64,000 bases of DNA, from contig OZ024743.1 in NCBI GenBank assembly GCA_964016885.1, positions 158,968,001-159,032,000 of the forward strand, written 5' to 3'. This DNA is from Eledone cirrhosa (Eukaryota). Each line of letters begins with the position of its first letter. Position 1 is the first letter of the stretch. The position numbers were made by a program, and so were the translations under genes. Below are positions 6,643-63,780 of this stretch, in pieces. Below the pieces are notes generated by a model. That model had not been told where the DNA came from and ran no database searches. It saw only the letters and a list, made by a program, of their open reading frames with translations.

Positions 6643-6933
6643 TGGATGCATGCATTAATGTATGTATACAGAGTGCATAAATATATTAAAAAGATAAATA
6701 AATATATATATTTCGTTTCTGAATTTGTTTAGCAAGATTCTTTATCTGAAATCGTGTGTTGAAACCGATATTGTTATACTTTGGGAGGGTCATGTTGCCA
6801 ATAAGAAACACACGCACCAGTTGCTTTCACTTCAATTTATTATATATTTATAAATTTATAAATTTACAAATCTACAAACTTATAAGTTTCTGGTTGGTTG
6901 GTTGGTTCCACAACCAGATAGTTGTTTATATAT

Positions 6934-6978
6934 AGTCATAGTCCTTTCGTCACACACTCTGTGACCTCATCAGTGACT
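6934..6978 (-). ncRNA. Minimal type I hammerhead ribozyme (family A)
   Basis: agtca-CTGATGA-g gtcac..gtgac-GAAA-ggac-TA-tgact. Confidence 0.8.
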
Positions 6979-7694
6979 GGGGATTCCTTTCTTTGTTTCT
7001 GTGCCTTTCCTTTCTTCTGTCCTGCGCCATTTTGTTTCTGTGTGTGTGTGTTGTGTGCTCAGTTTGCGCATGCGCCACATCCGGGTGTCTGTGTGTGTTT
7101 GTGTTCATTTATCTATTTGTTTATTTATTTATTTATTTATTGTTGGTTGGTTGTTTGTTCTATGTGTGTGTGTGTTTTCATTTTGTCCTTAATTGTAAGT
7201 TGTGATGTTGCTGTTCCACTCATATTTTCTATTTAATTTTGGTTGTAATTCTTTTATGCTTACTGCCTCTGTAATTTGCCTAAACATTGCATCTTTTCTG
7301 TGTGTGGATTCTATTTTTATTTCTATGTTCTCTAATTTAGCCTTGTGTTCTATGTTAGCATGATGGTAGAGTACAGATGATTCTTTATTATCTTGAAGGT
7401 CTCGCCAGTGTTCATTTATCCGTTCCCCTATACTACGAGCTGTCTCACCTATGTACACTATATTTTTGTTTCTACATTGTCCTTCAGTACATCTTATGCT
7501 ATACACTACATTTCTAGTTTTACAGTTAATATGGGGGCTTATTTTACAGGTTATACATGTCTTATCTATGCATGAGGGTCTTTGGAACGGGTATGTCTTG
7601 CTAATAAGTGTTTTTACGGAGGTACCTGGTCTTTCTACTATCTTAATATTGAGTTTATGACAAAATTGACGGTATCAACATTGACGGTATCAAC

Positions 7695-10600
7695 ATGGCC
7701 GACACCTCATTATCAGAAGAGTTCAACAACAAAAACACCAACATTTATGGGAACGCAAAAATAGATAATGATGAAATGTCTGTGTTATTTTTGCCGCCGA
7801 AATTTGCGACATTCAAGAAGGTAAATATGATTAGTTGTCTGTCAGAAATAGAAAAATCATTTACAAAACTACGCTGGAGCATCAAAAACAAAAGCAACAA
7901 TATACGCACACACATATACAACACACATCCCAACAACAACAGACACACAGACACAAACAACAATAACAACAACACACACATCAACAACAACAACAATAGC
8001 AACATACCCAGAAACAACAACAACAGACACGCAGACTCAAACAACAATAACAACACACACAACAACGATAACACACACGGAGACAACAACAACACACATC
8101 AACAACAGCACACATCAACAACAACAACACACACGCATTCAATGCCTCTCACCACCACCACAATCTTAACAAACACACAGACACAGAAAACAAGTAATGA
8201 CAGTAGCACAGAAATCAGAGAAATAAGGGAAAGTAATAAGATTAAAAGGAAAAGGAGATGGGAGACTAAGGACAAAGAGAATAACCAAGACGAACACACA
8301 GACACACAAAATAGGGTAGATAACAACATTGAGCCAGTGGAAAGAGACAGGAGTAATTATGAGAGACATAGAAACAACCATGAGGCTGTTGGTGGAAATA
8401 GAAATAGAAACAACACAACTAACAATAACAATAGCACTAGTACACATAAAGCAGCAGCCTGGAACTCTCTGTTTTATAATCCCTCCGATAAATCATTCGA
8501 CCTGCAACGAGTCCACGCCACGACTTTACCATTTAACAAACGCACGCAGTTGCCGTCGCAGGTCGATGAACAAACAGAAGCACAATTTAGTATAGCTAAA
8601 TCCGAACTTAGAAATATTATAGAACAGTATAGCAAGAAGCATAATAGAATAGAGGCCCAGCAACTGGGAGAAAAATCTGCAAATGGCTTGCGTAAGCTCA
8701 TGCAGCGCTCACGTAATGGAGAGATAGCATGCTTTCCAACAGACAAGTCTGGCAGAATGTCGGTTGACAGCCTGCCAAACTACATCCAGGCAATGCAACC
8801 CCACATCACTAACACAAGTGAGGTAACACCACAGGAGCATGAGGATAGAGAAAAAGCCCTCAATGCCCATATGGTGATGTGGACGAATATAATGCAGCCC
8901 AACAAAAGGACTGCAACAACTTCCAGGCCTGGAACAATGACGTGCCGGCGTTGTATGGGCTTCGAAAAGACCATAAAACGGGCTGTGACCCTGTCGCGGG
9001 ACCACCAACACGGCCAGTCTGTGGAACTAACATTGCTAGTAACTACAGACTGTCCTACTTCCTCTCCCTGATCATACGCTCCATCATTGAGATGTCCCCA
9101 GATGTATGTGACAGCACGGAAGACCTCCTCAGCAGAATCGGCGTGAGTAACCGATCCGGGGACCTAACAAACTGCATAATAGGCAGTATGGATGTTGTGT
9201 CCCTGTATCCATCTATTGACGTGGATTTTGCTGTGGAGAAATGCGTAGAAATGATCAGCGAGAGCAAGGTTGAGTTCCGTGGGATTGATACCAGTGAGCT
9301 GGGACTTCTACTTAAGCTTACCCATAGTAATAGTTACCTAGACACTTATGACCTTAGCAACCTGTGCCCTACAAGAGGCAGACCACCTACCATTACCTCA
9401 ATGGCCAAGAAAACCCACACAGATAGATGGAACGGGTGGACCAGAGCCATACGGACACCCGAAAACCACGATGAACTGAAGAAAATGATTGCACATGCGG
9501 TAGGGGCCAGCATAAAATTAACCCTTAAGGAACATATGTTCAAATTTAATAGAAAAACATATGCCCAAGAGGAAGGAGCAGCCATTGGTGTTAGCATTGC
9601 AGGCGACATAGCTAACTTATTCATGGTATGGTGGGACAGTAGACTTAAACTTAAACTTAAAGAACAATTAGAAGACAGCTTAACCCTGATAATGTACTCC
9701 TGCTACGTAGATGATATAAACATCGTAGTTAAGACACCCCCACTAGAGAACAGTCAGGAACTAGAGAAAAACACAATGGAAAGCATCCAGGAAATAGCAA
9801 ACTCCATCCACCAGAGCATTAGAGTTACTATAGACTACCCAAGTAGACACCCCAACCATCGATTACCTGTACTAGACACAGAGCTCTGGTTAGATACCAT
9901 CAACAACCAAAAACAAATCCTCCATTCCCATTATGCCAAACCCATGACTTCCAAACATCTGATCCACCGAAACTCGGCCATTTCGGACCATACCAAAATC
10001 AACATACTGATTGCGGATTTGGTACGGGTGATGAGAAATGTGTCCCTCATGTGCAACCCCGAAGAACTAGAGAGACACATACAACACTTCATCCACCGTA
10101 TGCAGTCCTCTGTCTACAATCAGAGAGATAGAATCAGAGTGTATAGAGGAGCCAGAACCAAATGGGAAAAAATGGTAAATAATGACATAAATGGGACCTG
10201 CCCCTTGTATAGGAGCAAATTTTGGAATAGAATAGAAAGAACTAAGAACAAAGCCAATAGAATAAACTCATGGTATGATAGCAATAAATACCAGAGTGTA
10301 ATGTTCATCAATACAACCCCTAGAGGCGAACTAGCCTACAAATTTAGAAGGGCCCTAAATAAACATAAACTCAATATTAAGATAGTAGAAAGACCAGGTA
10401 CCTCCGTAAAAACACTTATTAGCAAGACATACCCGTTCCAAAGACTCTCATGCATAGATAAGACATGTATAACCTGTAAAATAAGCCCCCATATTAACTG
10501 TAAAACTAGAAATGTAGTGTATAGCATAAGATGTACTGAAGGACAATGTAGAAACAAAAATATAGTGTACATAGGTGAGACAGCTCGTAGTATAGGGGAA

Positions 10601-10831
10601 CGGATAAATGAACACTGGCGAGACCTTCAAGATAATAAAGAATCATCTGTACTCTACCAACATGCTAAGATAGAACACAAGGGTAAATTAGAGAACAGAA
10701 ATAAAAATAGAATCCACACACAGAAAAGATGCAATGTTTAGGCAAATTACAGAGGCAGTAAGCATAAAAGAATTACAACCAAAATTAAATAGAAAATATG
10801 AGTGGAACAGCAACATCACAACTTACAATTA
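7695..10831 (+). pseudogene. PLE RT + GIY-YIG endonuclease, frameshifted (ORFs 7695-9071 and 8879-10741)
   Basis: PTDKSGR, SMDVVSLYPSID, QEEGAAIG, YVDD, CxxxxCxxC linker, VVYSIRC..YIGET.R...R..EH; frameshifts near 8915 and 10697. Confidence 0.9.
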
Positions 10832-11036
10832 AGGACAAAATGAAAACACACACACACATAGAACAAACAACCAACCAACAACATGTAAATAAATAAACAA
10901 ATAGATAAATGAACACAAACACACACAGACACCCGGATGTGGCGCATGCGCAAACTGAGCACACAACACACACACAGAAACAAAATGGCGTAGGACAGAA
11001 GAAAGGAAGGGCACAGAAACAAAGAAAGGAATCCCC

Positions 11037-62236: not shown

Positions 62237-62704
62237 TTTATTAAAATAACAGATTAAAGTTTAAGCAAAGAATCGGTGCTTTCACCCTTAACGGGATCTT
62301 CTGAAACTAACAAAGTCAATCTGTAAACGCAGAACTGGATATTTCAAAAAACGTTGCAGCCGGAGGAAGACAGGAAGACGATACTTTGGTTCGTGGTAAC
62401 GTTCGCTGGCAAAGAACGGGAAAAAACGAATAATACGTCATTAATAGGAGCGGTGAAAAATAATTACGCGCAAAGACAAAACCACGTTTATGGTATAAAA
62501 GAGGTCGTAGACTAATGTTCTCTTAGGTGGTGCATATAGACGTTCTCTGGCAATGAACGAAAAAACGAAGATAGCAGCGATTCTTTGCTTAAACTTTAAT
62601 CTGTTATTTTAATAAATATTTGCTCTACGGCTCTTATATATTTGATATATATTTTCCTTATCGAGCCCTCTTTGGATTTTAGTCTTCAATTTTATTATTA
62701 TTAC
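62237..62704 (+). mobile_element. Family G element with ~40-bp inverted ends and a one-sided tail
   Basis: 62237-62275 is the reverse complement of ~62578-62618; tail 62619-62704; (TA)n flanks. Confidence 0.78.
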
Positions 62705-63121
62705 TATATATATATATATATATAATTACATAATACACAACACAATATAATCATTCCATTATTTTTAATTGTGTACCTTGTCATATGTATTACAATATAT
62801 AATTAATATTGTTACTGTAATACTCTTCCATACGTGTCCTCTTGCAGTTGGTGTTTTCCTATCTTACCTCTATTGCACTCTTTACGGAACGACGAAACTT
62901 ACCTCTATTGCACTCTTTACGGAACGACGAAATCGACGAAAAAGTTTCAAGAAACTAGACGATTCTTACAGAAATGTCCAGTCCGTTCATCAGATAGACC
63001 ACCCACTTTCCTTTACATTTCTACGGAAATACTTCACACACACACACACACACACACACACACACACACACACACACACACACACACACACATATATATA
63101 TATATATATATATATATATAT

Positions 63122-63355
63122 ATAGGAACGAGTAGGACCCTGACGGCTCAGCTCAAGCCGTTTCGACGGCTAATTCTGGACTAATTGTGGACGGCTAATT
63201 CTGGACGGCTAATTCGGTCCAGAATTAGCCGTCGAAACGGCTTGAGCTCAGGCGTCGGGGTCCTACTCGTTCCTATTACCCACTTTACTACCCTAAGTAT
63301 TGACTACTTTGATACATTATGGTCCACCTGGTTCCTTACCACATTTCCTTCGTTA
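63122..63355 (+). mobile_element. Family F mini fold-back insertion
   Basis: Arms 63122-63181 and ~63218-63275; tail 63276-63355. Confidence 0.82.
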
Positions 63356-63383
63356 TATATATATATATATATATATATATATA

Positions 63384-63780
63384 TACGATATTAATAAATG
63401 GAAACTAGATTTATAAAACCATATTTATTTCATTATACATATTTCAGGGATACCAGATTAAATTCATCAGACAAAATACAATATATAACAGTTTTACAAA
63501 TAAGCTTTGACGTACCCTTTTAAAATGCGACCATTATTTTTGGAAGCCATCTGGAAGCTTATTTGTAAAACTGTTATATATTGTATTTTGTCTGATGAAG
63601 GCATACCATAATTTAATTTGGTATCCCTGAAATATGTATAATGAAATAAATATGGTTTTATAAATATAGTTTCCATTTATTAATATCGTATATCTACTCC
63701 AAATACTTGTCGAGTGCTTTATATCAGTTATAAAAATATTTACTTGTTGTATCCCAACAATTTTAAATAGAACTTTTGCA
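63384..63780 (+). mobile_element. Mini fold-back relative of the family B terminus
   Basis: Arms 63384-63506 and from 63556; tail ~63692-63780 matches the reverse complement of 26209-26294. Confidence 0.85.
63584..63648 (+). ncRNA. Hammerhead ribozyme (B relative)
   Basis: tattttgt-CTGATGA-agg c atacca..tggtat c cct-GAAA-tatgta-TA-atgaaata. Confidence 0.8.

Follow-up and report, generated by a model that had tools for sequence, protein, structure and literature searches.

Inverted Penelope-like insertions in (TA)n: one tailed and one tail-less end, and a putative priming at two internal sites

Why does an inverted retroelement insertion carry a tail at one of its outer ends and stop short of it at the other? 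This question is raised by a 64-kb stretch of DNA in a 3.0-Gb animal assembly (G000:C4:158968001-159032000), the whole of which we call the window and which is rich in (TA)n and in Penelope-like elements (PLEs). Throughout, the near site is the point at which a tail-less end stops and the far site is the tip of the tail. The pairing of one tailed with one tail-less end is a real rule for the inverted copies, and it is general across at least two PLE clades of this genome.

Inverted insertions and the pairing of their ends

The window was inventoried by self-alignment and direct reading of the sequence. A sequence-only reading of the same DNA had described inverted insertions with outward ends in (TA)n, and all of them were found at about the places it gave, each with one tailed end. 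The inverted insertions listed here have one tailed and one tail-less outer end each, both adjoining (TA)n. Strand is given for single arms and solos; the extents of C1 and C2 are those that we infer, for C1 from the tandem unit at locus L280. RT stands for reverse transcriptase and ORF for open reading frame.

6712-7659, minus strand: A1 left arm, family A, 950 nt, carrying the 58-nt tail (6712-6768)
7660-11246, plus strand: A1 right arm, 3586 nt, with a 5'-truncated, frameshifted RT + GIY-YIG ORF; stops at the near site (..gtataacaata) and runs into (TA)n
24618-33855: C1, a Hydra-like copy of family C/E; its minus arm has the tailed end (24618), and the tail-less end is at 33855; fold-shaped joint near 33690; B is nested in the microsatellite region of the minus arm
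26209-32539: B, Hydra-like PLE, 6.3-kb near-perfect palindrome with arms of ~3.1 kb each (99.4% identical); tail of ~88 nt on the left arm only (26209-26298); a 14-nt loop (29415-29428) is part of the tailed arm
34490-49460: C2, a copy of family C/E; its minus arm, with an internal jump, has the tail-less end (34490), and the tailed end is at 49460; joint near 35230; the plus arm spans ORF and microsatellite, where D and A2 are nested
37215-41274: D, Hydra-like PLE, short tail-less left arm that holds a SINE-like insert and 3.4-kb right arm with a tail of ~108 nt (41168-41274)
43404-46826, minus strand: A2 left arm, tail-less and the longer arm, 3420 nt
46826-48650, plus strand: A2 right arm, 1825 nt, tail at 48594-48650; hammerhead-like core CTGAAGA (48389-48395) and GAAA (48414-48417)
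49918-50990: H, non-coding short family with tandem units of ~510 bp; left arm tail-less, right arm tailed and longer than one unit
58075-58146: F-like mini with non-overlapping arms, a tail-less minus arm and ~22 nt of tail tip
58732-58921: F, left arm tailed, right arm tail-less
59005-59977, plus strand: diverged A-like solo, tail present, without inverted arm and outside the pairing rule
60207-60480: E', left arm tail-less, right arm tailed
60509-60668: G, left arm tail-less, right arm tailed
62237-62704: G, left arm tail-less and longer, right arm tailed
63125-63353: F, left arm tail-less, reiterated joint, right arm tailed
63386-63780: B', left arm tail-less, right arm tailed

The pairing was then counted in the genome around exact matches to patterns upstream of the near site, which number 24,291 for family A, 11,740 for B, 31,535 for E, 28,258 for F, 182 for D and 35,405 for G. 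Loci were the first 100 matches by position per family, a selection that is blind to tails. All 100 listed matches were mapped for A and the first 30 listed for each of B, D, E, F and G, and for B, D, E and F about 20 regions each were added that had been picked from their coordinates as likely pairs. In total, ~1.1 Mb around the listed matches was read. Thirty loci from a first, tail-bearing query are biased to tailed ends and were left out. Ends were assigned with an automated terminus caller, since a classifier based on prefix alignment had strayed into TA runs.

Of 71 family A insertions tallied by hand, 40 are inverted and retain both ends, 26 have no inverted arm in the 3-7 kb that were fetched, four have a second arm whose end is missing and one is a fragment. 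Among the 40 inverted pairs, 39 are one-tailed, one is two-tailed and none is tail-less at both ends, where independent choice of ends would make about 50% one-tailed (p = 4e-11). With the automated caller, 143 of 147 pairs in six families are one-tailed (A 38, B 27, D 19, E 11, F 40 and G 8; p = 1e-37). The remaining four were called as two two-tailed and two tail-less pairs, the latter being near/near miscalls in G whose tails are visible on inspection. For E, a looser caller found 28 of 30 pairs to be one-tailed.

The tail-less ends are fixed rather than scattered. They fall within windows of 5-9 nt in 47 of 54 cases for A, 39 of 43 for B, 32 of 34 for D and 54 of 64 for F, and 42 of 51 tail-less ends of E lie inside a 19-nt window that contains two stops. 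The recurring stops reported from the window (..gtataacaata in A, ..taatatygta in B and ..gttcctata in F) were found as described, and the tabulation of tails per arm outside the window bears out what had been read from the window. What had been put forward as one integration rule holds for the inverted copies; it does not cover the 26 of 71 A insertions without an inverted arm or the window solo at 59005-59977.

Single loci were also inspected by eye. At B loci L160 and L239 the tails are diverged, and at D locus L257 the tail is an inner, interrupted one. The two tails of A locus L077 differ at a subfamily base, so one may have been added later, and E locus L274 is a genuine near/near pair. 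The D and B calls at L252 come from one later palindromic duplication of a nested locus: at G000:C4:117975946-117976762 the entire nested B+D locus is mirrored as a single palindrome, apparently by a later inverted duplication. Pairs of family H that seemed to be two-tailed turned out to have tandem arms ending tail-less; they come from the tail-biased sample and are excluded from the counts. The TA runs on the tailed and the tail-less side do not differ in length (n = 143, p = 0.11), and there is therefore no sign of a repeat made by RT on one side.

Palindromes in (TA)n are a familiar assembly hazard, and hairpin chimeras of long reads could in principle imitate inverted copies. Such an assembly or library artefact would mirror both ends, whereas seven families here have two fixed and unlike end points; moreover, the arms differ by 0.6-12% and bear one-sided nested insertions. 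We give this explanation next to no credence.

The two sites and the joining of the arms

The sequence-only reading had placed one primer at the RNA's 3' terminus and the other at a built-in internal site. Where A, B, D, C/E and H form tandem units, their tails continue straight into the next unit, so that the far site is also internal and a primer at the RNA 3' end is unsupported. In family A the first codons of the ORF span both sites, each of which reads AATATCG. As seen in natural tandem units, near and far sites overlap the target by 2-7 nt of TA-type sequence. TA likeness alone does not determine the site, because family A has longer TA runs that are rarely used, TATATATA at -166 and, at -79, ATATATA; it is at a weak ATAT at -3 that 47 of 54 tail-less ends lie. 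The near site lies from ~30 nt (E) up to ~175 nt (A) past the GAAA of the hammerhead-like core, the range to which the earlier statement that the stop comes shortly after the hammerhead has to be amended. Solo copies of A use both ends, 12 being tailed and 14 tail-less, and each A site can therefore start an insertion alone.

The tail difference might also arise after synthesis, with an endonuclease trimming or resolving a DNA intermediate at two staggered sites. Endonuclease trimming is suggested in the accessible text of PMC8557442, and an endonuclease that prefers TA could cut the two sites, which are TA-like. In vitro, however, the two RT start sites of PAc (Poseidon of Anolis) bound the tail and lie exactly at its borders (PMC11167929). 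Stronger TA motifs within the arms stay unused, and trimming alone does not explain arms that do not overlap. Such an origin seems to us highly improbable.

We consider it likely, judging from the sequences of the copies, that reverse transcription is primed from the two 3' ends of the cut (TA)n target, one at each of two internal sites of a tandem-unit RNA, and that the cDNAs are joined by microhomology. The GIY-YIG endonuclease would cut both strands of (TA)n, and each target 3' end would pair by a few bases with one protein-defined site on the uncleaved tandem RNA, the near and far sites being 58-110 nt apart and one being used per target end. Both cDNAs would then be extended, in short families often stalling near the ribozyme, and their free ends would be joined head to head through microhomology by a polymerase-theta-type end joining. 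Both primings may use a single RNA, perhaps held by a protein dimer. If one priming alone succeeds, the product would be an ordinary 5'-truncated solo, either tailed or tail-less. Two built-in sites and head-to-head joining, the parts of the earlier two-ended priming that we retain, are the best reading because minis have non-overlapping arms, either arm can be the longer one, joints show microhomology and the stops are fixed.

That either arm can be longer had been noticed in the window and is confirmed by the arm lengths in the genome. Counted as tailed arm longer, tail-less arm longer and arms within 30 bp of each other, the pairs number 15/16/7 in A, 12/11/4 in B, 7/4/8 in D, 0/0/11 in E, 6/2/32 in F and 0/5/3 in G; the arms of E and F are mostly 40-70 nt. 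Pairs that are nearly undiverged can already be very unequal (116 vs 829 at L054, 1056 vs 2812 at L064).

One indication of two primings comes from A minis of up to ~62 bp. Exact patterns searched genome-wide gave 511 far/near, 102 near/near and 0 far/far minis, in numbers that are not strictly comparable since the patterns are of unequal length. The tailed arm of the far/near minis stops short of the near site, and their arms have no sequence in common, a form that a simple fold-back cannot produce and that points to two primings. As near/near minis occur and far/far minis do not, the near site is suggested to be the obligatory one. The joints of the minis have 2-4 nt of microhomology in 21 of 25 fetched loci (three small clusters are included, leaving ~21 independent places), against 16.5% expected (p = 2e-13). 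Larger joints contain templated and reiterated fillers. Such fillers are typical of polymerase-theta end joining. In 26 of 27 pairs, an arm resembles its sister more closely than it does the median other copy, pointing to a common source of the two arms. Counted from the near site, the inner arm ends of the A loci cluster around -205 to -215 and around -258 to -276. Both clusters are at the hammerhead-like region's front and are possible RT stall sites.

Several observations weigh against this account, in addition to the limited comparability of the mini counts. The rule is not absolute, as near/near minis make up one sixth of those counted (102 of 613). The own arm is strictly the closest copy in just 10 of 27 pairs, for which reason we do not regard a single RNA molecule as shown. 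Near-equal arms are in excess, with 8 of 84 pairs vs 2.5 expected (p = 0.0004), and these include B of the window (3.1 + 3.1 kb), whose equal arms a fold-back explains as easily as do two enzymes that run off a single RNA end. Unequal arms with microhomology could also result if palindrome centres were deleted asymmetrically at a later time. Finally, target-site duplications are unreadable within the (TA)n flanks, and so is the geometry of the cut.

Part of this evidence favours a fold-back, in which a cDNA begun at the tail end turns back and copies its own sequence until the second target end captures it at the near TA motif; arms would become unequal through later loss of the palindrome centre. 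Besides the near-equal arms, the hairpin-like joints of window B and C1 and the near/near minis, many of them around a CATG hairpin, agree with it, and the accessible text of PMC3846280 proposes self-priming for PLE palindromes. A fold-back requires the tailed arm to be the longer one at birth, though, and among the pairs of A and B, 16 of 38 and 11 of 27, respectively, have the tail-less arm as the longer one, also at an arm divergence of 0-0.5% as at L054 and L064. It leaves the 511 minis without common arm sequence unexplained, as well as the 14 solos that stop at the near site without a partner, and the returning strand would encounter better TA motifs earlier. Fold-back probably explains a minority of events; as the general explanation we think it unlikely.

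Similarly doubtful, and to our minds slightly more so, is that the two target ends are primed on two separate RNAs and that an asymmetric complex gives each end a site of its own. The two cDNAs are copies of one region, which on a single RNA would require strand displacement or a second tandem unit. The near/near minis and the 10 of 27 strict best matches fit two RNAs as well, and dual priming is described as possible for L1 in the accessible part of PMC2837659. However, the arms share subfamily and private variants, as the 26 of 27 pairs above show, and the arms of A2 are 99.4% identical when A1 and A2 are about 96% identical. Far/far pairs are almost absent, and arm lengths correlate in A (rho 0.41) and D (rho 0.59). 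Furthermore, no pair with arms of two families was found, the apparent C+E chimeras being one family.

Comparison with known systems

The layout itself is in print, and the sequence-only reading had given this work too little weight. For endonuclease-bearing PLEs, PMC8557442 (Craig et al. 2021; Fig. 2 legend) describes an inverted truncated copy with a tail of 30-40 bp often at one end, and PMC3846280 (Arkhipova et al. 2013) a tail on one of the inverted pseudo-long terminal repeats (pLTRs), for which antisense self-priming is proposed. As far as its accessible text goes, PMC8557442 explains the tail by endonuclease resolution and regards it as open how tandem and inverted structures arise. 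The tails are 58-110 nt here against 30-40 there. The accessible portions of both papers contain no count of how strict the pairing is; here it is counted, and the non-overlapping arms point to two primings. A 34-bp repeat located at the ORF start is reported in the text seen of PMC2377424.

The closest biochemical parallel is PAc, which in target-primed reverse transcription in vitro cuts and extends both strands of the target (Frangieh et al. 2024, PMC11167929). Both-strand cutting and extension and two internal RT start sites that bound the tail are likenesses to what we propose for our families. A dimer is predicted for PAc, and the uncleaved ribozyme RNA is its template. The PAc study saw no start-site difference between the strands, does not address inverted insertions and reports no homology to the cut DNA, whereas the sites here have 2-7 nt of TA overlap with the target.

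In L1 twin priming, two nicks prime two cDNAs on one RNA, which are joined through micro-complementarity (accessible parts of PMC2837659 and 10.1101/2024.08.27.596794). Oppositely oriented arms with a microhomology joint, which need not overlap, are found here too, and the inverted product and correlated arm lengths are shared with L1. According to the same parts of these sources, the second L1 site is spurious and far upstream, the events leave short deletions or duplications (medians 14.5 and 22 bp) and they are a minority of insertions. Here, in contrast, both sites are fixed and less than 110 nt apart, and inverted duplications of up to kilobases make up ~56% of A insertions.

Thus, the inverted one-tailed layout and two RT start sites that bound the tail were already published, and the counted rule and the mechanism proposed from it appear to be new. 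Neither strict pairing nor a twin-priming account for PLEs was found in the literature searched, which did not reach subscription papers and supplements.

Strict pairing makes the origin of tandem and inverted PLE insertions, an open question according to the accessible text of PMC8557442, testable. The sharp rule carries a prediction for the assay of PAc, the only in vitro system, in which this question was not addressed: once a target is cut, its two ends should start from different sites of a single RNA. If two-site priming is true, two first-strand syntheses are the way in which a large class of retroelements integrates. This would have a bearing on how target-primed reverse transcription evolved, on the use of PLEs for gene insertion and on where the very many palindromes of such genomes come from (family A alone has 24,291 exact end matches). 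A broader version, in which endonuclease-bearing PLEs of all clades normally integrate by a programmed asymmetric twin priming, is tentative, and we put it somewhat below an even chance. A dimer would then hold one RNA with both RT sites loaded at fixed positions 58-110 nt apart, introduce a double-strand cut and extend both ends simultaneously, leaving the joining to host end-joining. Tails, inverted pLTRs and solos would be outcomes of one reaction, and no second-strand step of the R2 or L1 type would take place.

Families of the window and further copies

YxDD and xY..YIG motifs are present in A, B, C/E and D. Family A matches RVT_1 (E 3.6e-4) and GIY-YIG (E 6.4e-4), both below the Pfam cut-off, and Pfam gave no match for B and D. 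The linker of A, CIDKTCITC, is of the Cx4CxxC type and agrees with the Cx2-5CxxC that precedes the GIY-YIG of Neptune and Nematis clades. Based on these sub-cut-off matches and the linker, A is classified as a Neptune/Nematis-like PLE. By their motifs B, C/E and D fit the Hydra clade: they have RWR/RWK, DKT, a CxCx5C linker, a C-terminal GIY-YIG-like domain and (TA)n targets. Hydra units are 'generally under 3 kb' in the accessible text of PMC8557442; those found here have 3.5-6 kb, with a long microsatellite 3' region in C/E. The N-terminal GIY-YIG endonuclease that is a trait of Naiad and Chlamys is not present in A, B, C/E or D, which carry their GIY-YIG-like motifs after the RT, and none of them is therefore a Naiad. 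Partial tandems, direct or inverted, form pLTRs, with tandem units at L080 (A), L228 (B), L259 (D) and L280 (C/E), and the optional 3' tail is the start of the next unit.

C and E had been treated as separate families. At L280 the C ORF and the E end form one 6-kb unit in natural tandem order, with tail, 758-aa ORF, ~2.5 kb of TA/TG microsatellite and hammerhead end. As this single unit holds both, C1 and C2 as chimeras of two families were ruled out. Since C and E form one family, the seemingly solo E ends of the window, at 24618 and 49460, most likely represent the far ends of C1 and C2, in which B, D and A2 are nested. With C ORF and E end being parts of a single unit, C1 and C2 obey the pairing rule when they are read across these nested insertions, and not otherwise. 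The microsatellite of C/E thereby supplies targets and nesting sites for other PLEs, as B, D and A2 of the window sit inside it.

Hammerhead-like cores (CTGANGA..GAAA) were recognised by eye in A, B, D and E, and folding recovered only part of the fold; an Rfam scan of the window gave 0 matches at the gathering score. Variant hammerhead-like cores occur in G (CAGAAGA at L365 and at other G ends) and F ((C/T)TGAGAA or TTGATAA at L168 and L170). F, G and H are short families, and no full-length coding partner was identified for F or G. An RT-bearing ORF (RVT_1 E 3e-8) at L291:3108-5130 lies near F copies and is not shown to be that of F. Animal non-LTR retrozymes are short tandem hammerhead-bearing units thought to be mobilised by PLEs (accessible text of 10.64898/2026.07.22.740005). 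H with its ~510-bp tandem units matches their form; inverted insertions and tails are not treated in that part of the account.

Some further copies lie in the window. A tRNA-like repeat of the short interspersed nuclear element (SINE) type sits in one arm of D (37391-37510) and of H (50568-50688). A tail-less minus arm of an A-related family (A3), also common in the genome loci, is found at 57497-57660. It is followed at 57707-57901 by an unlisted inverted insertion with a CTGATGA..GAAAC hammerhead-like core, whose left end is at (TA)n and whose right arm continues. Two F-like copies are in direct tandem at 12022-12765, and a short F-like tail-less arm at 17755-17811 ends in a (TG)n run. Older inverted repeats without family assignment are located at 11512-11949, 24060-24183 and 2831-3226.

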